Source: a bacterium
Lineage (GTDB): Bacteria; UBA8248
DNA: 64,000 nucleotides
Reading direction: 5' to 3'
Assembly (NCBI GenBank): GCA_965261085.1
Contig: OZ253442.1
Coordinates: forward strand, 3,584,001-3,648,000
Part shown: positions 8,859 to 21,940 of the stretch, one piece after another
How the letters are laid out: every line of letters starts with the position of its first letter
How positions within the stretch are numbered: the first letter of the stretch is position 1
Notes under the pieces: generated by a model
Database searches by the model: none
What the model saw: the letters and a program-made list of their open reading frames with translations, nothing else
What the model was told of the DNA's origin: nothing
Translations under genes and position numbers: made by a program

Positions 8859-10379
8859 CTATCCTTCCGCGCTATGCTCACCCAGGTCGGCGGGGTCGGT
8901 CACCTCGATGCTCCCCTTGAGCCCGAACAGGCGCTGCATCTTCTTCCTGAAGGCCGGCGTAAAGAGTTTTTCGGCATAATACCGGCCCGCCACCCTTTTG
9001 TTCACCTGCGCCAGGGTGGGATACACGTGAACCGTATCCACCACCTCCTTGACGTGCATCTTCTTTCGGACGGCCAGCACGAACTCGTGCAATATCTCTC
9101 CCGCCGCAGGTCCGACCAAATCGGCCCCCACGAGCCTGCCCTTCTCGTCGCACACCACCTTGCAAATACCCTCCGTTTCCCCATCCAGGACGGCGCGGTC
9201 CACCCGGCTCATCGGAAAGCGAAGCACTTGCACGCGGTTCGCCCCCAACGCCGCTTCGGCGTCCGCTTCGCTCAAGCCGACGTGCGCCGCCTCGGGCGTC
9301 GTGTAGATCGTCCATGGCACGGCGTCGTAGTTCGTTTTTTTCTTGAGAAACGGGAGCGGAACCCCGAAAGGCGCGCTGAAGAGCATGTTCCTGAGCGCCA
9401 CGCCCGCTTCATACTCCGCCATGTGGGTGAAGAGATATTGGCCCCGAATATCACCGGCAGCGAAGATGCGCGGATTCGCGGTTTGAAGATATTCGTCCGT
9501 CTCCACGCCGCGAGGGGTGTACTTCACACCTGCTTTCTCCAGGTCCATCCCGGCCACGTTGGGCGATCGGCCAGTCGCGATGAGTAGTTGATCACAAACC
9601 CATTCTCTCTTCCCCGATGGCGTATCCGCTTCGAGGAAAATCTCCTCGCCGCGTTTTTCGACTCTTTGCGTGTTCACGTTGAAATGAAGTTTAAGACCCG
9701 ATTTCGTCAAGGAATCGCCCAGAATCTCAGCCATCTCTTTATCGAGCCTTGGCAAGAGTTTCGGCGCGCTTTGCAGCACTTCCACCTCGGCGCCGAGTTG
9801 TTGAAACGCTTGGGATAATTCCAGGCCGATGGGTCCGGCTCCCAGCACCACCAGGCGTCTGGGCAACTCCTCCAAATCAAAAACGGTTTCGTTCGTGAGA
9901 TAGGGCACGCTATCGAGGCCGGCGATGGGCGGCACGAAAGGAGAACTTCCCATGGACAGCAAAAACCGCTTGGCACGCAGCGTCCGCTCTCCCACCTGAA
10001 ACGTGTCGGGGCCGGTAAAAGCACCATCGCCGAATATCACCTCGATGCCCATCCCCTCGAAACGCTCGGGCGCATCGTGCTCGCCGATGTGAGATTGAGC
10101 CGCCTTCATGCGCTTCATGACGCGGGGGAAATCGACCCGAACGTCGCTCACGTCAATCCCGAACTCGGGCATCGAGCGCGCCTGCGCCGCCAGCCTCGCC
10201 GCGCGTATCAGGCCTTTCGAGGGCACGCATCCATAGTTCAGGCAATCCCCGCCGAGCTTCGTCTTCTCGACGAGCGCGGCCTTGGCGCCCAGTTGCGCCG
10301 CGCCAACGGAAGCCACCAAACCACCGACGCCTCCTCCGATGGCCACCAAATCAAACACCGATTCATTTTGCATCTTCAT
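8859..10379 (-). CDS. FAD-dependent pyridine nucleotide-disulfide oxidoreductase (MerA/E3-like family)
   Basis: GGGVGG, GGDCLNYGCVP, GAGPIG, HVYPT; start at MKMQ with a GGAGAGGA RBS. Confidence 0.88.
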   Translation of the reverse strand: MKMQNESVFDLVAIGGGVGGLVASVGAAQLGAKAALVEKTKLGGDCLNYGCVPSKGLIRAARLAAQARSMPEFGIDVSDVRVDFPRVMKRMKAAQSHIGEHDAPERFEGMGIEVIFGDGAFTGPDTFQVGERTLRAKRFLLSMGSSPFVPPIAGLDSVPYLTNETVFDLEELPRRLVVLGAGPIGLELSQAFQQLGAEVEVLQSAPKLLPRLDKEMAEILGDSLTKSGLKLHFNVNTQRVEKRGEEIFLEADTPSGKREWVCDQLLIATGRSPNVAGMDLEKAGVKYTPRGVETDEYLQTANPRIFAAGDIRGQYLFTHMAEYEAGVALRNMLFSAPFGVPLPFLKKKTNYDAVPWTIYTTPEAAHVGLSEADAEAALGANRVQVLRFPMSRVDRAVLDGETEGICKVVCDEKGRLVGADLVGPAAGEILHEFVLAVRKKMHVKEVVDTVHVYPTLAQVNKRVAGRYYAEKLFTPAFRKKMQRLFGLKGSIEVTDPADLGEHSAEG

Positions 10380-10434
10380 ATCCTCTCCAGATGGCGAAAA
10401 CCGCCTATCCTGCAACAAATGCGGATTGACCCGC

Positions 10435-11961
10435 TCAAGACGTTTCCTTATCCAAGGGTTTGAGCCCAAACGCGAAGAACAAAACCGCGATGAGGAAATA
10501 ACCGACAGCTATGCCGGGCGCCGCCCCCCAGCCGAAGGAACTGACGACGCCGCCGGGCGTGATTCGCCAGGCGTGGATGATGCCGAACCAACTCAAGACC
10601 GCACCGGCCATGGCCCAGCCTCCCGCCTGTTTCGGCTCGCGGTCCACCAGCTTCGCTACGATGGCCGTCATGATGATGGACGTAAAAAGAAAACCGCGCG
10701 CCAAGGTAACCATCCCCACCATGTGGAATCCCGATTTAACGAACGCGTCCTGCCCCACTTTCCATATGTTCGTGCCTGCCGCCCGGAGGGAGGATTCCAC
10801 CATCAACAATCCCCACGCGGCGATGGCAGGTATCAACCCGATGGCCACGGCCGGTCCGTGGCGCGCCGGCGACGCCTGAAACGCCTGGGTGAGCATCATC
10901 ACCCCAATCCAGAGCATGAGGGCGAAGAGTGCTTCACCCGGAATGATTTTCGAGAGCGCTGCAATCGAGCCAGTGAAACAAAGAATCGTCATAACGACCC
11001 CGTTCATCGCACTATAGGCCGAGCGTGCCCCAACCGCCTTCCACGCCGGGTGCCCAATATACAAGGTGGTGGGAAAACAACTACCCAAGCACGCCGCAAG
11101 AAGCGAGCCCGCGCCGTTCACCGCCAGGGAACTGCCCGTATCAAAATTGTCTCCGCCCGCGGCCGCGCTTTCGAGGCACATCAAACTGCCCACCAGCGTC
11201 ATCAGACCCATGGGGATGGAAACGGAGAGATAATCCCAGGCCAGCGGACCGAAAAGAGCGTCGGATAAAGGGCCCAGGGCCGAGGTTGGGAGCGCCAAGC
11301 CCACAGGCGCAGGAATCCCGCCCGGAAATCCCTTGATGACGGCGGATAGGACCACTCCCACCGCCACCGCCACGAGGCCGCCCGGCACGCCGAAGGGAAA
11401 CCGGAATCCTCCGAAATAATGGAGCAGTATGATTCCAAGCGGGATCATGGAGAGGAGTGGATTTTCCCAGATTCGGAACGTGAAATCCATGGCAATGAAC
11501 GTGAGCGCGATGCCCCCCAGAGCGGAGAGCAAAGCGGCCCTCGGCGCGAGCCGCCTGATATGCTTGCCCACCAGCGAGCCGACGGTCTCTATCACCCCGC
11601 TCACGAAACAGGCCGCCAGTCCCGCTTGCCAGGCCGCCTCGGCGCTTCCGGTCTTCAGCTTCACGGGCAGCATGACGAAAATAATGAACGCGAATAGCGT
11701 CACCGTGTTGATGCCGTACGGCATGGCGGTCACGTCGTCGCGGCCTTCGCGCGCGGCCAGGCGCCTCGCCTGCCAAGAGTAGAAGAGGTTGCCCCCCAGG
11801 AGGCTTAAGGCCGCGGCGGGCAACACGCGCCCGAAAATGAGCGAATCGGGAAAGCCCATCATCCCTTTGAGGAAACTCACGATGAGAAGCAGATTGATGA
11901 GGTTGTCCATCCACAGGCCGAAGAAGCCATCGACATCACCCTTCACGAACCACGTAGACAT
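10435..11961 (-). CDS. NCS2-like (xanthine/uracil/AzgA-related) permease
   Basis: GDVDGFFGL, TAMPYG, YIGHPAWK motifs; about 12 hydrophobic segments. Confidence 0.8.
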   Translation of the reverse strand: MSTWFVKGDVDGFFGLWMDNLINLLLIVSFLKGMMGFPDSLIFGRVLPAAALSLLGGNLFYSWQARRLAAREGRDDVTAMPYGINTVTLFAFIIFVMLPVKLKTGSAEAAWQAGLAACFVSGVIETVGSLVGKHIRRLAPRAALLSALGGIALTFIAMDFTFRIWENPLLSMIPLGIILLHYFGGFRFPFGVPGGLVAVAVGVVLSAVIKGFPGGIPAPVGLALPTSALGPLSDALFGPLAWDYLSVSIPMGLMTLVGSLMCLESAAAGGDNFDTGSSLAVNGAGSLLAACLGSCFPTTLYIGHPAWKAVGARSAYSAMNGVVMTILCFTGSIAALSKIIPGEALFALMLWIGVMMLTQAFQASPARHGPAVAIGLIPAIAAWGLLMVESSLRAAGTNIWKVGQDAFVKSGFHMVGMVTLARGFLFTSIIMTAIVAKLVDREPKQAGGWAMAGAVLSWFGIIHAWRITPGGVVSSFGWGAAPGIAVGYFLIAVLFFAFGLKPLDKETS

Positions 11962-12138
11962 CGGAGTCCTCCTGCTCAAAGTGAAAAACGTCAAACCAGG
12001 CGCGCCGCAATTCTCGGGATAGTAAAACAAGCGGCAATATTCGCCAAAGCGCCCGAGGCTGTTTTTCTCATCTCCATCGTTTTGATATGCTTTATCCGTA
12101 AACAAAAATTACGTTCGCGCTCATAGGGGAGAAAAGCG

Positions 12139-12891
12139 ATGGAAGCTGTCAAAGTTTATACGCGGCACGGGTGATATACCTGCGCCCTTACGAGAGAGTT
12201 TCTCTCGTCCAGCGGTCTGGAAGTCATTAACCGGGACTGTACGAACGACGCCGAGGCTCAGGCGGAGCTCAAGGCGCTGGGAATCAAGGCCCTGCCCGTC
12301 GCCGTGCGCGGAGAGAACGTGGTGGTGGGCTATGACGTGGATGCGCTTCGCAAAGCCTTCGATATCGAACAGGAAGGCGCAGGCCCCCTCTCGTCTGAAA
12401 AAATGCTCCACTACTTCGAGATGGTCTTCGACGCCCTTCGCCGCGCGGTCCGCCAAATCCCGCAGGAAACGCTCGATTGGGTATCTCCCGGTAGACCCCG
12501 TACGCTTCGCCAACTCACATGGCACAGCTTCGAGCGTCCCGACCTGGTGATGCAGACCCACGCATCGGGGGAATACACCGAGGATATGGTGAGGGAATAT
12601 GAAACGGTGGCGAACAACTACCACACCCAAGAGGATATCTGCGGCTACGGCGATGAAATTCAGGCCAAGCTCACCGATTTTCTCACCGACGGCGGCGAGG
12701 CGCTCGCGCGGAAAGTGTCGAGCTATATGGGACCCATCACCGTGCATGAGTTGATGATCCTCTCCCTGGGGCACGCTTTCCAGCATTTGCGGCAAACCTA
12801 TCACTATTTCGGGATGCTGGAGATTGAGCCGGAAAATCCCTTACGCCCCGAGGATTACGAGGAAGTGCCCGTGCCCAAGGATCTTTTCTAG
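12139..12891 (+). CDS. Selenoprotein: glutaredoxin/NrdH-like domain (UxxC) fused to a DinB-like domain
   Basis: RBS AGGGGAGA, ATG at 12139 in frame with ORF 12304; MEAVKVYTRHG-TGA-YTC...ALPV...VGYD; DinB-type H...HAFQH; hairpin downstream of the TGA. Confidence 0.85.
12172..12215 (+). promoter_or_regulatory. Putative bacterial SECIS element
   Basis: In-frame TGA at 12172; stem ACGAGAGA/TCTCTCGT (12190-12208) with a GTT loop whose G is 24 nt after the UGA. Confidence 0.75.
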
Positions 12892-12920: not shown

Positions 12921-14198
12921 ATGCCCTCGAAAGATACATTCCCCCTTCGCGCCAACCGCGCCCGCATGAGGCGTGAATTCAACGCCCAGGCGCGAATCGG
13001 CAAATACGGGAAAACGGGCCTCGACCGCGTAGCCTTTACGCCGGCCTACAACGATGTTCGCGACCTCGTCCAAGGCTGGATGAAGGAGGCGGGCCTTAAG
13101 ACGCGCGTCGACGCCGTGGGGAATCTGTACGGAAGAAAAGAAGGCCGCATGGGCGGGCTTCCCGCCGTGATGGTCGGCTCGCACCTCGATTCCCAAAGCC
13201 CGGGCGGGCGATTCGACGGGCCCGCAGGCGTCCTCACCGCCTTGGAGGCGGTCCGGCGCATTGACGAGGCGGGATTCACGCATGCTCACCCCATTGAGGT
13301 GGTGGCCTTCGTGGGAGAAGAATCCGCATGCGGGATGACGGTGTTCGGCAGCAGCGTCGCCACGGGCGTCGTGGGCGTGAAGGACTTGAAGAACACGGAG
13401 CATCCCCCCACCGGAAAATCGCTGTATGAGGCCATCGAGGCGGTGGGCGGAAGCCCTGCGCGCGTGCGCTCCTGCAAGATTCAGGAAGGGTCGCTCAAGG
13501 CCTTTTTGGAGCTTCACATCGAACAGGGGCCGGTTCTCGAATCAGCCGAGGCGCCCATCGGCATCGTGGACAGGGTCGTGGGATACACGAGAGGCGAGGT
13601 TCACTTCTCGGGCGTCGCGGCGCACTCGGGCGGACAGCCCATGCCTTACCGGAAGGACGCCGGCATGGCGGCGGCGGACTTCATGGTGCGGATGGAGAAC
13701 GCCGTGAAACGCGCGCCCGAATCCCAGCGTCTTACGATTACCTTCGGCGAGATGGAAGCGCTCCCCGGGTGGGTATCCATCGTGCCCGGAGGCGCGAGGC
13801 TTTCCTTCGACCTGAGGAGCAGAAGCCAGGCGGTGATGGAGCGTACCCTCGCGCGAATGGAGAAAACACTCGCCGCCATCGAGAAGGAGCGCGGCGTTCA
13901 GGGGCGCTTGTCCGGCGTGAACAAGCTGGCCGTCTGCCCCACGTCCGCCAACATCCAAAAGGCTCTCCGGCGCGCCTCTAAAGAGACGGGACACGCCTCG
14001 CTCACGCTATCGAGCGGCGGGGTGCACGACGCCTGCCGCATGGCGGCGATATGCCCGATGGGCATGGTGTTCATTCCCTCGGTGGGTGGGCTCTCGCACA
14101 CTCCGGAGGAGTTCACGCACTTTGACGACATGGTGAAGGGTGCGGAAATCCTCGCCTCAGCCACCCTGCGTCTTACCGATGAGAAGGTGAAGGCGTAA
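12921..14198 (+). CDS. Zn-dependent hydrolase, M20 allantoate amidohydrolase/N-carbamoyl-amino acid hydrolase family
   Basis: GSHLDS, GGRFDG, EE, ELHIEQGPVLE, GGVHDA, GLSHTPEE. Confidence 0.92.
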   Translation: MPSKDTFPLRANRARMRREFNAQARIGKYGKTGLDRVAFTPAYNDVRDLVQGWMKEAGLKTRVDAVGNLYGRKEGRMGGLPAVMVGSHLDSQSPGGRFDGPAGVLTALEAVRRIDEAGFTHAHPIEVVAFVGEESACGMTVFGSSVATGVVGVKDLKNTEHPPTGKSLYEAIEAVGGSPARVRSCKIQEGSLKAFLELHIEQGPVLESAEAPIGIVDRVVGYTRGEVHFSGVAAHSGGQPMPYRKDAGMAAADFMVRMENAVKRAPESQRLTITFGEMEALPGWVSIVPGGARLSFDLRSRSQAVMERTLARMEKTLAAIEKERGVQGRLSGVNKLAVCPTSANIQKALRRASKETGHASLTLSSGGVHDACRMAAICPMGMVFIPSVGGLSHTPEEFTHFDDMVKGAEILASATLRLTDEKVKA

Positions 14199-14482: not shown

Positions 14483-15745
14483 ATGGGCAGGATATTCAGG
14501 CACGTCATTTTCGGGTTCTTGCTGCTCCTCGCGGCGAGCATCGCTTTCACCCCCGCGGCGCAGGCGGCCAAAAAAGAGGTCACAATCGGATTCAGCATGG
14601 CGCTGACCGGGCCACTCGGCCCCGCCGGCAAGGCGGCGCTGCTGGCCATCCAGATCTGGCGCGACGACGTGAACGCCAGGGGCGGATTGCTCGGCCGCAA
14701 GGTCAAGTTGGTCTATTACGATGATCAGACCAAACCCGCCAACGTTCCGGGCATCTACGCCAAGCTTCTCGACGTGGACAAGGTGGACTTCGCCGTCTCG
14801 GGCTACGGGACGAACCTCATCGTCCCCGCACTGCCGATCATGATGGAGCGGGGCATGGTGTTCATGGGCCTGTTCGGCCTCGACGCGAACGCCAAGTTCA
14901 AATACGACAACTACTTCCAGATCATGCCGGCCGGCCCCGACCCGGTGGTGGACTGGTCCCGCGGCTTCTTTGAACTCGCCGTGAAGCAAAAGCCCCGGCC
15001 CAAGACGATAGCGCTGCTCTCGGCCGATTCCGAGTTCGCGCGCAACGCCGTGGCCGGCGCCCGTAGGAACGCGAAGAAATACGGCCTCAAGGTCGTCTAC
15101 GACAAGCGCTACCCCTTCCCGGGCACGACCGACTTCACGCCGATTCTGCGCGCGGTCAAGGCTACCAACCCCGACACGTTCTACGTGGGTTCCTACCCAG
15201 GCGGCTCGGTGGGCATCGTGAAGGCCGCGCATGAGATCGACCTCAAACCCAAGCTCTTCGGCGGCGGCATGGTCGGCCTGCAGTACACCGCCATTCAGAT
15301 GAACCTCGGCAAACTGCTCAACGGCATCACGAACTACTGGTTCTGGGCGCCGGAGAAGACCCTGAAATTCCCGGGCATCGAAGCCTTCCTGGCGAAATAC
15401 CAGAAAGAAGCGCCCAAACAGAAGCTCGACCCGCTGGGCTACTACCTTCCGCCGTTCGCCTACGCCTACGTGCAGGTGCTCGGACAGGCGATTGAGGCCA
15501 CCAAGAGCTTCGACCAGAAGAAGGTCGGCGCCTACATCCGCAACAACACCCATTCCACCGTGGTCGGAAAGGTGAAGTTCGGCAAGAACGGCGAATGGGC
15601 GACCTCCCGGACGTTCCAGGTGCAACTCCAGAACATCACGAGCAACAAGATGAGCGAGTTCAGCAAACCCGGCAAGATGGTGGTGCTGTATCCTGAGGAA
15701 TTCAAGTCCGGAAACCTGATCTACCCTTACGAGAAAGCCAAGTAA
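14483..15745 (+). CDS. Branched-chain amino acid-type ABC transporter substrate-binding protein
   Basis: Signal peptide; LTG..., VNARGGLLGRKV, YYDD motifs; first gene of a Liv-type operon. Confidence 0.9.
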   Translation: MGRIFRHVIFGFLLLLAASIAFTPAAQAAKKEVTIGFSMALTGPLGPAGKAALLAIQIWRDDVNARGGLLGRKVKLVYYDDQTKPANVPGIYAKLLDVDKVDFAVSGYGTNLIVPALPIMMERGMVFMGLFGLDANAKFKYDNYFQIMPAGPDPVVDWSRGFFELAVKQKPRPKTIALLSADSEFARNAVAGARRNAKKYGLKVVYDKRYPFPGTTDFTPILRAVKATNPDTFYVGSYPGGSVGIVKAAHEIDLKPKLFGGGMVGLQYTAIQMNLGKLLNGITNYWFWAPEKTLKFPGIEAFLAKYQKEAPKQKLDPLGYYLPPFAYAYVQVLGQAIEATKSFDQKKVGAYIRNNTHSTVVGKVKFGKNGEWATSRTFQVQLQNITSNKMSEFSKPGKMVVLYPEEFKSGNLIYPYEKAK

Positions 15746-15760
15746 CGAACCGGAGATGAT

Positions 15761-15797
15761 GACGCGGACCGGGGGGACACACCCCCCGGTCCGCGTC
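15761..15797 (+). terminator. Intercistronic stem-loop after the SBP gene (mRNA stabiliser or attenuator)
   Basis: GACGCGGACCGGGGGG / CCCCCCGGTCCGCGTC perfect 16-bp stem, no U tract. Confidence 0.6.
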
Positions 15798-15820
15798 CGG
15801 CTCGCAGGAGGAGAGCATCC

Positions 15821-16693
15821 ATGCTCAGTGTCGAATTTTTTCTGAACGCGCTCATGGCGGGCATCCTGCTGGGCGGTTTCTACGCCGCGATAAGCGTGGG
15901 GCTTTCGCTCTCCTTCGGCCTGCTGGACGTCGTGAACATCGCCCATCCGGCGTTCATCCTCTGCGGCTCCTATGTGACTTTCTACGCCAACGAGCATTTC
16001 GGGGTCGACCCGATAATCGCAGGCGTCGTTTTCGCCGTTCCGTTCTACTTCGTGGGTGTCGCGGTCTACCGGATTTACTATAACAGCTTCGAGAAGACGG
16101 GGGCCGAGTCCCTGCGGGGGCTGGTATTTTTCTTCGGACTGTTTTTCCTGATCGAAGTCATCCTCATCATCACCTTTGGGGTGGACTACCGCCTCGTCCA
16201 GGCGTTCTACATCGGAAAATCCACGTCCATCGGCCCGGTGGGAATCGCCTACCGGCTGTTCGTGCCCTTCCTGGTGGGCGGGATACTCGCCACCGGCCTG
16301 TATCTGTTTCTCTCCAAAACATTTTTCGGACGCGCCGTCATGGGCGTGGCGCAGGACAGCCTCGCCGTTCAACTCATGGGGGTCGACCCCATCCGGATCA
16401 AGACGGTCGCGTTCGGCATCAGCATCGCCACCGCCGTGATCGCCGGTTCCCTGCTCATCATCATCGGCCCGGTCGAACCGACCATCGGGCGAGAGTACAT
16501 CGGCCGTGTCTTCGCGGTCACCGTCCTCGGCGGGCTGGGCAGCATGACGGGCACGCTCGTGGGCGCGCTCGTCCTGGGCGTCGCGGAGAGCTTTACCTCT
16601 TCTTTCTTCGGTCCCTCGTGGTCGCTGGCCGTCTCGTTCGGCATTCTGCTCATATGCCTGGCGGTCCGGCCGTCCGGCCTGTTCGGGAGGTAG
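15821..16693 (+). CDS. LivH-like ABC permease
   Basis: GLSLSFG..NIAH, LGGLGS, RPSGLFG. Confidence 0.9.
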   Translation: MLSVEFFLNALMAGILLGGFYAAISVGLSLSFGLLDVVNIAHPAFILCGSYVTFYANEHFGVDPIIAGVVFAVPFYFVGVAVYRIYYNSFEKTGAESLRGLVFFFGLFFLIEVILIITFGVDYRLVQAFYIGKSTSIGPVGIAYRLFVPFLVGGILATGLYLFLSKTFFGRAVMGVAQDSLAVQLMGVDPIRIKTVAFGISIATAVIAGSLLIIIGPVEPTIGREYIGRVFAVTVLGGLGSMTGTLVGALVLGVAESFTSSFFGPSWSLAVSFGILLICLAVRPSGLFGR

Positions 16694-16697
16694 CTCC

Positions 16698-17657
16698 TTG
16701 AATAGCGAAAGGAGGCTCTTCCTGATCGTGGCCGCGGTGCTGATCGTGGGAGCGTTCCTCATCACCACCCAGATGGAAAACCGATTCTACTACAAGGCGG
16801 CCTATGTCGTTTTGCAGTACGTCGTCCTGGCCACCGCCTGGAACATCCTGGGCGGCTACACCGGCTACGTGAACTTCGGCACGGCGGCGTTCTTCGCCAT
16901 GGGCGCTTATACCGCCGTCGCGCTCATCAAGACCTGGAAGCCGCCCCTCTACGTGCTGCTCGTCGCGGGCGGCCTCGTCTCGGGCCTGTTGGGACTCGGC
17001 ATCGGCTACCTGACCTTGAGGCTCAGGGGCGTTTTCTTCTCCATCGCCACCCTGGCGCTCGCCATCGTGCTCCAGATGCTCGTCTCGAACTGGGACTACG
17101 TGGGCGGGGGCGCGGGCACGCCCGTCCTCAAGCCGAGGAGCGTGCCGCTGTTCTCGAACTACGACGAGTTCCTGTTCTTCGTCATGGCGGCGCTCGCGGT
17201 GGTCGCCGTGTCGACCGCCTGGCTCATCGAGCATTCCTGGGTCGGGCGGGGAATGGCCGCCATCCGCGACAACGAGGAGGCGGCCGAGTGCATGGGCGTG
17301 CCCATCCTCAAGATCAAGCTGTTCGCCACCACGGTGAGCGGCGCCCTGATGGGGATCGCCGGCGCGCCGTTTTCCTATTTCGTCGTCTACATCGAACCCA
17401 CCTCGGCCTTTCACCTCGATTACGCCGTGAACAGCCTGGCCATGCCCATGATCGGCGGCACCACCACCTGGCTCGGCCCGCTGGTCGGCGCGGTTCTCGT
17501 CGGCACGGCCCAGCAGATAGCCACCGTCACCCTCTCTTCGGAGATGAACCTGCTCATCGTGGGCAGCCTGCTCGTGGGCTTCGTGGTGTTCGCTCCCGAC
17601 GGCCTCGTGGGCCTGTTCGGTAAAATCCGCGCGCGCCTCGCAGGGAGGGAGGCATAA
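16698..17657 (+). CDS. LivM-like ABC permease
   Basis: WNILGGYTGYVNFG, AIRDNEEAA, GPLVG. Confidence 0.9.
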   Translation: MNSERRLFLIVAAVLIVGAFLITTQMENRFYYKAAYVVLQYVVLATAWNILGGYTGYVNFGTAAFFAMGAYTAVALIKTWKPPLYVLLVAGGLVSGLLGLGIGYLTLRLRGVFFSIATLALAIVLQMLVSNWDYVGGGAGTPVLKPRSVPLFSNYDEFLFFVMAALAVVAVSTAWLIEHSWVGRGMAAIRDNEEAAECMGVPILKIKLFATTVSGALMGIAGAPFSYFVVYIEPTSAFHLDYAVNSLAMPMIGGTTTWLGPLVGAVLVGTAQQIATVTLSSEMNLLIVGSLLVGFVVFAPDGLVGLFGKIRARLAGREA

Positions 17658-18382
17658 TGAGCGACAATCTCCTCGACGTACACGGCGTCACCAAACGCTT
17701 CGGCGGCTTCAGCGCGCTCACCAAAGTGGATTTGCACGTGAAGGAAAACGAGCGCTTCGGCCTCATCGGCCCCAACGGATCGGGCAAGACCACCCTGATC
17801 AACTGCATCTCGGGCGCTCTCGCCAACGACGAGGGGAACATCGTCTTTTCCGGCCGGGACATCACCACCATGCCCGCCTACAAGCGAACCCGCATGGGCA
17901 TCGCCCGCAGCTTCCAGATTCCCAAGCCGTTCGTCAGCATGACGGTGCTCGAGAATCTGTGCATTCCGCTCGAATACGCCGCCCACAAGCATTCGCACGG
18001 GGCGGACCTTCAAGGCGAGGCCATGGAGATACTCGAAGTCATGAGCCTGGCGGACAAGGCCGACGCGCGGACCGGGGGGCTCACGCAGATCGAACTGCGC
18101 AAGCTCGAACTCGCCCGCGCCATGGCGGCCAAGCCGCGATTGCTCATATCGGACGAGGCCATGGCCGGCCTCTCCAACACCGAGGTGGACGACATTCTCG
18201 AAATCCTCGTGCGCCTGAACGAAGAGGGCCTCACCGTCATCATGATCGAGCACATCATGCGGGCGGTCATGAGTTTTTCGGAGCGCATCGTCGTCTTGGA
18301 CGCGGGTGAGAAAATCGCCGAGGGCGCGCCCGATGAGATCGTCAACAACAAAGACGTGGAAAGGGCCTACCTTGGCGCATAG
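17657..18382 (+). CDS. LivG-like ABC ATP-binding protein
   Basis: GPNGSGKTT, RSFQ, IEH. Confidence 0.9.
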   Translation: MSDNLLDVHGVTKRFGGFSALTKVDLHVKENERFGLIGPNGSGKTTLINCISGALANDEGNIVFSGRDITTMPAYKRTRMGIARSFQIPKPFVSMTVLENLCIPLEYAAHKHSHGADLQGEAMEILEVMSLADKADARTGGLTQIELRKLELARAMAAKPRLLISDEAMAGLSNTEVDDILEILVRLNEEGLTVIMIEHIMRAVMSFSERIVVLDAGEKIAEGAPDEIVNNKDVERAYLGA

Positions 18383-19103
18383 GATAGTCGTCGAAAACGT
18401 CTCCGCAGGCTACGGGGCAGTGCGCGTGCTGCACGGGGTCTCCATCGAGGTGAACGACGGGGAGACCGTCGTGCTCCTCGGCACCAACGGCAACGGCAAG
18501 AGCACCCTCATCAAGTGCATCATGGGCATCGTTGAGCCCGACGAGGGCGAGATATACCTGGAAGCCGACGGCGAGCGCATCAGCCTGGTGGGCCGAAAAC
18601 CCGAAGAGATCGTCAACATGGGCGTCACGCTCGTGCCCGAGGGCAGGCGTCTCTTCCCCCTCCTGACGGTGGAAGAAAACCTCCTCTTAGGCGCCTACCG
18701 CGAGGAGGCCCGCCGCGACATCGATCGCAACCTGGCCTTCTCCTTCGAGGCCTTCCCGGTTCTCAAGGAACGCAAGAGCCAGCTCGCAGGCAGCATGAGC
18801 GGGGGCGAGCAGCAGATGCTGGCCGTGGCCCGCGCCTTGATGTCCGCTCCCCGGGTGCTTCTGGTGGATGAGCCTTCCGTCGGCTTGGCGCCCATCCTCG
18901 TTACCCGGGTGATCGCCAAAATCCGCGAACTCAAAGAGAAATACCAGCTCACCATCCTCATGGCCGAGCAGAACTTCAACCAGGCGGTCAAGATAGCCGA
19001 CAGGGGCTACATCATCGTCCACGGCGAAATCGCCTTCGAGGGAGTGAACACCGAGGCCCTCGCGGGCCACGAACTCGTGAAGAAATACTACCTCGGGGTG
19101 TGA
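18372..19103 (+). CDS. LivF-like ABC ATP-binding protein
   Basis: GTNGNGKST, VPEGRR, MSGGEQQM, DEPS; TTG start overlapping the upstream gene. Confidence 0.9.
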   Translation: MAHRIVVENVSAGYGAVRVLHGVSIEVNDGETVVLLGTNGNGKSTLIKCIMGIVEPDEGEIYLEADGERISLVGRKPEEIVNMGVTLVPEGRRLFPLLTVEENLLLGAYREEARRDIDRNLAFSFEAFPVLKERKSQLAGSMSGGEQQMLAVARALMSAPRVLLVDEPSVGLAPILVTRVIAKIRELKEKYQLTILMAEQNFNQAVKIADRGYIIVHGEIAFEGVNTEALAGHELVKKYYLGV

Positions 19104-19439: not shown

Positions 19440-19526
19440 TTTCGCATCGCAAAAGATTCGAGGAGATATTGGTAGCAGCGCATGAAGCGTCTTCATGTCA
19501 TTCAGTCACTTCAAGGAGGAACATTC

Positions 19527-20810
19527 ATGAGTCGTTTGGACAGAAGAAAATTCCTGAAAGGCGCAGGCCTCATCGGCGGCATCGTCGCCGCGCAGACCGC
19601 TCCCCCGTTCCTGAGAGAGGGTCTCGGCGCCCGACCAATCAAGTGGGGCTCCATCCATCCGACGACGGGTCCCTACGCCACCGAGGCTTTCGACCAGGTG
19701 GAAGGCGTTAAAATCGCCATCGAGGACGTCAACAAGGAAGGCGGCGTGGATGGGCGCCAGATCAAGCTGCTCTTCCGCGACGATCAGTTCAAATGGGATC
19801 AGACCACCACGCACGCGCTCGACCTGATCGACAACCACAGGGTCGATTTCATCGCGGGCTCCATGGTCGGCCCCGAGGAAGTGCGTCTCAACGAGTTCTC
19901 CCGCAAGCGCAAGATCATTTATGCGAACTATCCCCAGCACATCATGTCTACTCCGGGAAACGCGAACAAGATGTCGCCCCTGTTCTTCACGGCGAACACC
20001 ACGCCGTATCAGTTGGCAGCGAGTTCGCTCACCTATATCGCCAAGAACAACCTGGGCAAAAAGATTCACTGCGTATTCGACGACTACATCTGGCCCAAGA
20101 TGTTCATCCCCGCCTTCAAGAAGCTGACGAAGGACTTCAACCTCACGTGGAACGAGAACAGCTCCGTCTCCTGGGTTCCCTTCCCGACCTCGATGGACTA
20201 TTCCGCCACGTTCCCGAGAATTTTGAAAGAAAAACCAGACGTCCTCTACGTGCTGTGCTGGGGACAGCGTCAGGTCGCCTTCGTCAAGCAGGCGCGCGAA
20301 GCCGGTCTCGACAAGAAAGTGAAGATCGTCCTCGGCGCCACCGAGGTCACCATCCCCGAGGCCGCCGGCCCCGGTTCGTATGACGGCTTCAACGCGGCGA
20401 TGATGTGGCACCCCTCTCTCGCGAGCAAATACCCCGCCGCCAAGGCGCTGAACGATAAGTTCCTGGCGCGCCGTAAACGTCCGTGCTCGAGCTACGGAAT
20501 GCTCGCCCACGACCTCACGCGGCTGATTCTGGATACGGCGAAAGAGACCAAGCTCTACAAGCGCCGCGATCACTTCAAGCTCGCAAAGGTGCTGGAAGGC
20601 AAGAAATTCCAGTACAGCAAGGGCCCGTGCGAGATTCGCGCCTGCGACCACGTCTGCATCTCGGAGGTTTTCGTGATGCGCGGCAAATCCAAGGCCGAGA
20701 TGAAACACCCCTTCGATCACATCGAGGTCATCGGCTCCTCCAGCGGCGCGGGCAACACCGTCTCCTGCGAGGCGAAAGGTCTGAAAGGACCCGCCAGCGA
20801 CAGGAGCTAG
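19527..20810 (+). CDS. Liv-type ABC substrate-binding protein with Tat signal
   Basis: MSRLDRRKFLK twin-arginine signal; AGGAGG RBS; NKEGGVDGRQI..DD. Confidence 0.88.
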   Translation: MSRLDRRKFLKGAGLIGGIVAAQTAPPFLREGLGARPIKWGSIHPTTGPYATEAFDQVEGVKIAIEDVNKEGGVDGRQIKLLFRDDQFKWDQTTTHALDLIDNHRVDFIAGSMVGPEEVRLNEFSRKRKIIYANYPQHIMSTPGNANKMSPLFFTANTTPYQLAASSLTYIAKNNLGKKIHCVFDDYIWPKMFIPAFKKLTKDFNLTWNENSSVSWVPFPTSMDYSATFPRILKEKPDVLYVLCWGQRQVAFVKQAREAGLDKKVKIVLGATEVTIPEAAGPGSYDGFNAAMMWHPSLASKYPAAKALNDKFLARRKRPCSSYGMLAHDLTRLILDTAKETKLYKRRDHFKLAKVLEGKKFQYSKGPCEIRACDHVCISEVFVMRGKSKAEMKHPFDHIEVIGSSSGAGNTVSCEAKGLKGPASDRS

Positions 20811-20840
20811 GAAAGCACATCGAAGCATCGTCAGACGCCG

Positions 20841-20877
20841 GCCTGGGCGGTTGGAAATCCAGCCGCCCAGGCTTTGT
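20841..20877 (+). terminator. Stem-loop after the SBP gene
   Basis: GCCTGGGCGG...CCGCCCAGGC followed by TTTGT. Confidence 0.55.
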
Positions 20878-20956
20878 CCTCATGGCGTTTGACAGCGGCG
20901 GCGTTTCATCCTAGACATTGCACTCTTGCGACTTCCCCGTTTCCAAGGAGCGTGTT

Positions 20957-21940
20957 TTGCCAAGCGGCGGTGGTATTGAATTCTCGGAGTTCGTCCAGCA
21001 TTTGTTTCTCGGGCTGGTGCAAGGTTCCTTCTGGGTTCTGCTGGCGCTGGGCCTTTCTATCGTGTTCGGGCTGATGGGCATCATCAACTTCGGACACGGC
21101 GCCTTCTACATGCTGGGCGCGTACGTGGGGTACACGATCTCGAACCTCATTTTCACGCCCATTTTCGGACCGAACGTGGGCTTCATCATGGCCGTCGCAC
21201 TTGTACCGGTCGTCATGTTCGGAATCGGGATGGTTTTTGAGAAATACGTCATCAGCAATATATACAATACGGAAAACGAGCGGTTCTCGGGCGTTCTCAT
21301 CATGTTCGGCACGTCCATCTTCTTGCCGGACTTCGTCCGCTTCATCTGGGGCAGGCCGGGGAAACCCTTCAACATCCCGCCGATGTTCGGGTTCTCCCTC
21401 TTAAAGACGGGCACGCTCGACATCTCGGCCTACAGGAGCTTCGCCATCATCACCGCGGCGATTCTCGTCGCCCTCCTCTGGCTGCTCATCTACAGGACCA
21501 ACCTGGGCATGATGATTCGCGCGGGCACCAACAACAACACGATGGTGAAGGTGCTGGGCATCAACGTGTCACGTATCTGGCGGCTCACCTTCGGTTTGGG
21601 CATCGCCCTTGCCGGATTCTCCGGCGTCATGATAGCGCCCCTGTTCGCGGTGGACGCCACGATGGGCGAACTGATTCTGGTGCAGACCTTCATCGTCGTC
21701 GTCGTCGGCGGCATGGGGAGTTTCATCGGCCCGGTGATCGGCGGGCTGATTCTGGGCCAGCTCTGGGCGCTCACGCCCCTGGTGGGCAGAACCCAATACG
21801 TGGTTCAAAACTGGACAGGCACGGTGATAGGCCCCGATTTCTGGGAAAAAGCGTCCGACATCCTGCTCTTCATCGTGATGGCGGTAATCCTTCTCTTGAG
21901 ACCAAGAGGGTTGTTCGGCCAAGAAGGCGCTTTTGATTAA
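20957..21940 (+). CDS. LivH-like ABC permease
   Basis: GLSIVFGLMGIINFGHG, VVGGMGS, RPRGLFG; TTG start after AAGGAG. Confidence 0.9.
   Translation: MPSGGGIEFSEFVQHLFLGLVQGSFWVLLALGLSIVFGLMGIINFGHGAFYMLGAYVGYTISNLIFTPIFGPNVGFIMAVALVPVVMFGIGMVFEKYVISNIYNTENERFSGVLIMFGTSIFLPDFVRFIWGRPGKPFNIPPMFGFSLLKTGTLDISAYRSFAIITAAILVALLWLLIYRTNLGMMIRAGTNNNTMVKVLGINVSRIWRLTFGLGIALAGFSGVMIAPLFAVDATMGELILVQTFIVVVVGGMGSFIGPVIGGLILGQLWALTPLVGRTQYVVQNWTGTVIGPDFWEKASDILLFIVMAVILLLRPRGLFGQEGAFD

Follow-up and report, generated by a model that had tools for sequence, protein, structure and literature searches.

Glutaredoxins (Grx) with selenocysteine (Sec, U) in a UxxC motif are a known and experimentally supported selenoprotein family and, in a 2026 review of prokaryotic selenoproteins, are described as efficient thiol-disulfide oxidoreductases (PMC13188914). 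The DinB superfamily includes bacillithiol, mycothiol, and glutathione S-transferases, in which a metal activates the low-molecular-weight thiol for transfer, according to a paper that cites Newton 2011 for these activities (PMC6300522). In Table 2 of the BSepDB paper (PMC13326102), metagenome-assembled genomes (MAGs) of the lineage with the GTDB label UBA8248 are among the ten most selenoprotein-rich bacteria. The NCBI labels of these MAGs are Nitrospinota, Nitrospinaceae, or Tectomicrobia. Here we describe a gene of this lineage in which the two kinds of domain are joined. It lies in a window of 64,000 nucleotides (nt), the whole stretch of DNA that was analyzed (assembly GCA_965261085.1, contig OZ253442.1, positions 3,584,001 to 3,648,000 of the forward strand; coordinates below are those of the window). 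The gene is cut short by public annotation and most likely encodes a 250-residue protein with an active-site Sec, in which a Grx domain precedes a DinB domain. Its frame contains the following elements.

12126 to 12131, plus strand: Shine-Dalgarno-like GGGGAG, 7 nt before the start codon, read directly from the sequence
12139 to 12891, plus strand: putative selenoprotein gene in full length, 250 codons, of which codon 12 is TGA, and a TAG stop (12889-12891)
12172 to 12174, plus strand: in-frame TGA, very probably read as Sec (U12), at the first position of U-x-x-C, with C15 encoded by TGC at 12181-12183
12304 to 12891, plus strand: truncated open reading frame (ORF) of the table-11 gene call, GTG start, 195 amino acids (aa)

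Direct reading of the frame from the ATG at 12139-12141 gives a product of 250 aa that begins MEAVKVYTRHG-U-YTC and has a single TGA, at the first Cys position of a CxxC motif. The original prediction had proposed this read-through product, starting from an ATG that is preceded by a ribosome-binding site (RBS) and in frame with the ORF beginning at 12304, and each of these features is present in the sequence. It had further held that standard annotation truncates the gene, as the table-11 ORF from GTG 12304 indeed does. The same is true of the relatives, since in one search 34 of 36 database homologues were N-terminally truncated and the remaining two had Trp at the Sec column. The truncated homologues are 154 to 233 aa long and comprise the DinB domain only; the six named records among the 36 are called either "DinB family protein" or "hypothetical protein."

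A search of the lineage's own phylum found a homologue in 40 of 51 genomes, giving 42 match rows. Exactly one TGA is present in 39 of these rows, and the other three are fragments at contig edges that stop short of residue 12. In all 39 full-length homologues of the same lineage, which share 53 to 100% identity, the TGA occupies the same codon, and all 39 loci read M-[ED]-x-V-K-[VI]-Y-T-R-[HY]-G-TGA-[YF]-[TS]-C with the ATG at the same place. Most of them also have a GGGAG- or AGGAG-like motif at the position of the Shine-Dalgarno-like sequence. Two genomes (G047 and G049) carry a second, diverged Grx-DinB copy with 44 to 49% identity; one of these copies (L051:301-1065, plus strand; 48% identity when the locus was read) has a TGA at the same codon, and the other (L056) ends at a contig edge before it.

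The codons on both sides of the TGA are conserved as coding sequence. Over the 11 codons before it, the proportion of synonymous differences (pS) was 0.875 and that of nonsynonymous differences (pN) was 0.042, a pN/pS of ∼0.05 in 12 comparisons that were all made against the window; downstream of the TGA, pN/pS was 0.34. A low pN together with a nearly saturated pS means that the stretch before the TGA is translated in this frame.

More distant relatives came from a profile search, in which the profile was made from 20 read-through proteins and the database held 1.84 billion cluster representatives; it gave 1,663 matches at an E value of 0.001 or lower and 305 at 1e-10 or lower. Of the best 150 representatives, 52 extend over the full length and have Cys at the Sec column, typically within W-Q-P-G-C-[ST]-S-C (xPGC[ST]SC), while Trp and Ser occur there in one each. 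The other 96 have no N terminus, and 88 of these start shortly past the active site, within the Grx domain. In a distant environmental subfamily, the TGA is again present, in the context V-Y-Y-R-P-G-TGA-F-T-C, at all 22 metagenome loci that have upstream sequence. Homologues thus carry Cys or TGA at the column in question, as a selenoprotein reading of the original prediction called for, and the fusion is kept in Sec and Cys forms alike across hundreds of clusters. Three database proteins (P0010, P0018, and P0053) have Trp at the Sec column. These entries are best explained as gene calls made on contigs of this lineage with TGA read as Trp, because near-identical homologues have TGA in the DNA.

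The genome has the machinery for Sec insertion. Genes for selA (579 bits) and selB (384 bits) lie side by side, both over the model cut-off, selD is also over its cut-off with 336 bits, and ARAGORN found a tRNA-Sec with the anticodon tca. The selD gene, which lies outside the window (L011, G000:C1:3459-4421, minus strand), has one in-frame TGA of its own, so that SelD is probably a selenoprotein in this genome as well. The codon at 12172-12174 is covered by contigs of three public runs, for which no other letter is listed. Two contigs from RNA libraries of different studies span the unchanged TGA (record 3, 12130-12418; record 7, 12157-12373) and could derive from a transcript in which the Grx part is included. 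Since the TGA is unchanged in the contigs of all three runs, an assembly error is ruled out; a misread TGC or TGT, the technical concern raised with the original prediction, is likewise countered by the same TGA in the 39 full-length homologues. A sponge metagenome label was found only on runs with a share of 0.31 and lower, and no habitat claim is drawn from it.

In bacteria, the Sec insertion sequence (SECIS) is a stem-loop that lies just downstream of the UGA and has a G in its apical loop. A hairpin that may serve as such an element follows the TGA in the window.

12190 to 12208, plus strand: SECIS-like hairpin, arms 12190-12197 and 12201-12208, loop GUU 12198-12200

The stem, ACGAGAGA-GUU-UCUCUCGU, has 8 bp and a loop that begins with G, both as first described. 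The distance of 24 nt originally given for it fits the loop, whose G (12198) is 23 nt past the last base of the TGA, but not the stem, which begins at 15 nt. A hairpin of 6 to 8 bp keeps its register in 51 distinct sequences of the two lineages, where 91.4% of the cells pair, compared to 34 to 69% when the 3′ partner is slid, and the six inner pairs are present in at least 46 of the 51. One pair, 23-33, covaries, being G-C in 29 sequences, A-U in 22, and unpaired in none; here, where Arg AGA is replaced by Lys AAA, the Leu codon on the other side changes synonymously from CTC to CTT. The third positions of a Thr/Met codon (ACG/ATG) and of Glu GAG are invariant in all 51 sequences, whereas synonymous sites elsewhere are near saturation.

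The read-through product contains two domains and a tail, laid out as follows.

12139 to 12363, plus strand: glutaredoxin (thioredoxin-fold) domain, residues 1-75, with the invariant P53 in L-P-V; from Pfam PF00462, AlphaFold2 (AF2), and Foldseek
12394 to 12816, plus strand: DinB_2 four-helix-bundle domain, residues 86-226; from Pfam PF12867, Foldseek, and the His triad
12523 to 12525, 12772 to 12774, and 12784 to 12786, plus strand: His triad H129, H212, and H216, invariant in the alignment
12817 to 12888, plus strand: conserved C-terminal tail, residues 227-250 (P..PL....Y...PVP..LF), from the alignment

Both domain assignments of the original prediction, a glutaredoxin/NrdH-like N terminus and a DinB/YfiT-type C terminus with H...H-x3-H, were borne out by Pfam, by fold matches, and by the invariant triad. 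Residues 4-56 match Glutaredoxin (PF00462) with 32.7 bits against a gathering cut-off of 22.9, and residues 93-219 match DinB_2 (PF12867) with 27.6 bits against 24.8, over model positions 2-127 of 128. The AF2 model of the read-through product, which was built on a 20-sequence alignment, has a predicted local distance difference test (pLDDT) of 90 and a predicted template modeling score (pTM) of 0.84, the latter value suggesting that the two domains are packed in a fixed way rather than as beads on a string. The N-terminal part of the model follows the order β-α-β-α-β-β-α, U12 and C15 lie where the helix 13-24 begins, and long helices span residues 86-105, 123-143, 164-184, and 202-226.

With Foldseek, the Grx part of the model matched cGrx1 (7c10 and 7c12; 38 to 39% identity, template modeling [TM] score of 0.88 to 0.89 on the target), BC3987, and NrdH proteins, and the profile search matched 7c12 with an E value of 2.4e-14. 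According to Kim et al. in 2011, cGrx1 is reportedly a selenoprotein in its native form. The DinB part matched DR0053 (6iz2, TM score of 0.83 on the target), YfiT (1rxq), 2p1a, 3dka, 8f5v, and 2nsf. Across 25 aligned Sec and Cys forms, R119, H129, G198, H212, and H216 are invariant, and the three His residues are present in 112 of the best 150 representatives. They align with His residues of the DinB-like protein YjoA (PDB 3dka), where they bind metal, and the triad H129/H212/H216 is expected to hold a divalent metal. In the tail, P231, P234, L235, Y240, P244, P246, L249, and F250 are invariant or nearly so, and the Cys forms end in a similar GLPxPxxxW/F motif.

Three neighboring genes recur with the selenoprotein gene in its own lineage.

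12921 to 14198, plus strand: hydantoinase/carbamoylase-family M20 amidase, starting 29 nt after the stop (TIGR01879, 351 bits against a cut-off of 204)
10435 to 12105, minus strand: divergent membrane protein, 508 to 556 aa, likely start near 11961, with no Pfam or NCBIfam match
8859 to 10469, minus strand: class I flavin adenine dinucleotide (FAD)-dependent pyridine-nucleotide disulfide oxidoreductase with a GGDCLNYGC motif (Pfam Pyr_redox_2 and Pyr_redox_dim)

The M20 amidase is directly downstream in 30 of 35 related loci and likely belongs to the same operon as the Grx-DinB gene. We considered the ergothioneine-pathway enzyme ErtE as its identity, but the score of 371 bits is below the cut-off of 520 and this lead was dropped. 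After the amidase, the window has two sets of branched-chain-amino-acid-type ABC transporter genes for binding protein, permeases, and ATPases (14483-19103 and 19482-21940, both on the plus strand). The membrane protein is found upstream in 28 of the 35 loci. On the minus strand, the FAD-dependent oxidoreductase follows the membrane-protein gene, whose end it overlaps by 35 nt; it scores 501 bits against a cut-off of 620 for the NCBIfam "FAD-containing oxidoreductase" and is below every NCBIfam equivalog cut-off. It is near the gene in 21 of the 35 loci, all of them with 80 to 98% identity of the Grx-DinB protein, and at two loci (L074 and L075) it is directly adjacent to the selenoprotein gene and divergent from it.

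All three neighbors are conserved only among kin genomes and are absent from all 37 metagenome loci. The flanks of 16 metagenome loci were clustered, and the genes that recur there are instead those of a glyoxalase-family protein, LytB, and an ammonium transporter. The glyoxalase/VOC-family gene is directly upstream in 10 of the 16, ending a few bases before the Grx-DinB start, and three such genes checked with Pfam (L108:931-1392, L109:796-1383, and L114:590-1399) were all Glyoxalase. LytB is encoded further upstream in the environmental Sec subfamily, and the ammonium transporter downstream.

Taken as a whole, the observations are probably best explained by one gene for a 250-residue Sec protein, a putative redox or transfer enzyme that combines Grx with a DinB domain predicted to bind metal. 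For its first part, the decoding of UGA 12172 as Sec and the two-domain product, our confidence is high. The chemistry we propose, a redox or transfer mechanism involving a metal site and a selenolate, is tentative and in our judgment falls well short of an even chance. In this scheme, the ribosome would read UGA 12172 as Sec, directed by SelB bound to the hairpin at 12190-12208. The three-histidine (His3) metal site would then bind and activate a small substrate that is thiol-reactive or oxidized, the U12 selenolate would attack this substrate or exchange with it, and C15 would resolve the resulting selenenyl-sulfide. An external reductase would re-reduce the U12/C15 pair; in this genus, the class I FAD disulfide reductase encoded nearby could fill this role. 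The net result would be a redox or transfer enzyme resembling a glutathione S-transferase (GST) but built from Grx and DinB. Judging from the sequence, we infer an enzyme for selenol/thiol redox or transfer reactions that works with a His3 metal site, and the "thiol-transferase" role of the original prediction is likewise putative.

Several points weigh against this account. Support for selenium insertion is indirect, and RNA-library contigs can hold carried-over DNA. The 69-nt stretch with the hairpin folds no better than shuffled sequences (z of -0.69, with 44 of 200 shuffles as good), so that it is the conservation of the hairpin, and not its stability, that supports it. The hairpin also overlies the peptide motif [RK]EFLS, and since the Cys forms keep this motif too, conservation of the hairpin is partly at the protein level. 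The covariation probably amounts to only two or three events among related sequences, the loop is small at 3 nt, and no Rfam match (SECIS family) was found in 12000-12400 at E values up to 10. As for function, a search of the genome gave no match for gshA, none for bshC, and a gshB match of 70 bits that is below the cut-off, mycothiol genes being outside this search; given that the genome is 96% complete, these genes are best described as not found with these models rather than as proven absent. For egtB, only partial FGE-like matches below the cut-off were found in the genome. A classical S-transferase role with a low-molecular-weight thiol is therefore left without a visible cofactor pathway. 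The gene context gives weak hints and no firm function, because the conserved neighbors differ between lineages.

Reading the TGA as a true stop would leave a DinB-only product from GTG 12304 or another downstream start, with the Grx stretch as a decayed remnant or a short leader peptide. Gene callers yield exactly such DinB-only products, both in the window, as the ORF from 12304, and in the 34 truncated database homologues. This explanation has next to nothing of our credence. The start at 12304 falls within Grx strand β3 of the model, strong purifying selection acts on the 11 codons that precede the TGA (pN/pS of ∼0.05), and all 39 loci, down to 53% identity, share the ATG, the RBS, and the TGA codon. 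Full-length Cys forms share the same architecture, and the truncated calls begin at widely scattered profile positions (17 to 63), as would result if each caller chose the first start codon after the stop. A different explanation accepts read-through but with Trp or Cys inserted at the UGA, whether through near-cognate decoding, a variant code, or a Cys-loaded tRNA-Sec at low selenium. The three database proteins with Trp speak for it. However, the Trp entries are otherwise near-identical to homologues whose DNA has TGA, and the natural non-Sec forms among the best 150 representatives have Cys (52) and almost never Trp (1). The neighboring genes are long, family-matching ORFs under table 11 (stop-codon use was not tabulated), the full Sec machinery is present together with a selD that itself carries a TGA, and a hairpin is conserved at the SECIS distance. 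Decoding as an amino acid other than Sec is thus very improbable, if slightly less so than a true stop.

A further alternative leaves Sec decoding untouched and concerns the mechanism only. The DinB domain could work in the conventional way of S-transferases such as YfiT/BstA or mycothiol S-transferase, using a free low-molecular-weight thiol, with the Sec-Grx domain merely recycling mixed disulfides or delivering electrons in the manner of mycoredoxin or Grx and taking no part at the metal site. Its fold and His triad match those of DinB S-transferases, and the Grx domain is nearest to free-standing Grx/NrdH proteins. The KEFLS motif also occurs in stand-alone Sec-Grx genes, and one environmental lineage has the glyoxalase-family gene directly upstream in 10 of 16 loci. 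We nevertheless regard it as rather unlikely, though a serious contender, in view of gshA, gshB, and bshC having remained below detection at the cut-offs (the search left aside the mycothiol genes), of the fixed domain packing suggested by the pTM of 0.84, and of the persistence of the fusion, in Sec forms as well as Cys forms, across hundreds of clusters. A bolder version of the selenolate-metal mechanism, to which we assign a low probability, is that the Sec-Grx domain supplies the nucleophile in cis, in place of bacillithiol, mycothiol, or glutathione, so that U12 at the His3 site would form a protein-tethered selenolate-metal center. Such a center would agree with the failure to detect genes for glutathione and bacillithiol synthesis in the genome. 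If true, the enzyme would be a selenium-dependent transferase or reductase that is independent of small thiols and convergent on the plan of GSTs.

A Sec protein of Grx and DinB domains, as preferred here, adds a two-domain architecture to the bacterial selenoproteome and corrects a systematic annotation error, in which the family is stored mostly as truncated proteins without the catalytic redox domain. DinB-fold proteins are numerous and mostly of unknown function, and fusion to a Sec or Cys redoxin points to a thiol or selenol reaction at the metal site. The paired Sec and Cys forms (a U12C/Cys-form system) make the question tractable for assay. The finding is an annotation fix and a handle on DinB-fold chemistry, not a new recoding principle. 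Elsewhere in the genome, outside the window, two partial matches of the EgtB/FGE-sulfatase type (G000:C1:568852-569154 and G000:C1:2691781-2692005) have one in-frame TGA each and may be further unannotated selenoprotein genes.

We found no description of a Sec-Grx-DinB fusion in the literature searched, nor any DinB protein reported there as part of a selenoprotein. The family table of the 2026 review does not list the fusion, and the review has no occurrence of DinB, YfiT, or PF12867 (PMC13188914). BSepDB, which finds genes by tblastn with known families, may hold the gene simply as "Grx." The Grx-DinB fusion is covered by no NCBIfam model, and none is over its cut-off for the read-through product, the nearest being the YruB-type (TIGR02196, 44.5 bits against 88.55), the NrdH-type Grx-like (TIGR02194, 38.9 against 85.75), and the Uxx-star (NF041212, 37 against 66) families. 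The protein is related to the first two but a member of none of the three, and its best score with any NCBIfam Grx family is the 44.5 bits.

Compared to Sec-containing Grx of the UxxC type, such as Clostridium oremlandii Grx1 (cGrx1, 7c10/7c12), our protein shares the thioredoxin fold, the Sec/Cys-x-x-Cys motif at the start of helix 1, and the KEFLS stretch that follows the motif in cGrx1. A metagenome scan (L120-L128) contained eight stand-alone Sec-Grx genes of ∼80 aa with V-[YF]-T-T-P-T-TGA-P-H-C...KEFLS and one longer Sec-Grx fusion (L120) with a C-terminal extension and the same KEFLS motif. Since UxxC Grx is an established selenoprotein family and such stand-alone genes exist, the Grx half belongs to a known kind. 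Its known counterparts stand alone and are ∼80 aa long, whereas a DinB domain and tail of 165 residues are added here. The fusion (seleno)proteins Uxx-star and HUGP/GUXX-star also have a Sec-using Grx-like domain, but the hidden Markov model similarity is weak (37 and 22 bits, far below the cut-offs of 66 and 325) and, by the family names, their Sec is 3 residues from the C terminus, while here it is residue 12 of 250.

The DinB/YfiT proteins YfiT/BstA (1rxq), mycothiol S-transferase (8f5v), DR0053 (6iz2), and mycothiol-dependent maleylpyruvate isomerase (2nsf) share the four-helix bundle and the H...H-x3-H pattern with the C-terminal half. Their identity to it is only 14 to 18%, no redoxin domain is fused to the DinB fold in any structure matched, and the genes looked for from their cofactor thiol pathways (gshA, gshB, and bshC) were not found over cut-off here. 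The overall plan, a redoxin-fold domain followed by an all-helical substrate domain, is that of Cys-type GSTs (Omega/Xi-like). Foldseek aligned these over the whole length with a root-mean-square deviation of 12 to 16 Å and a TM score of ∼0.3, which makes the likeness one of analogy and not of homology, and the helical domain, in contrast to that of the GSTs, is here a DinB bundle with a predicted metal triad.

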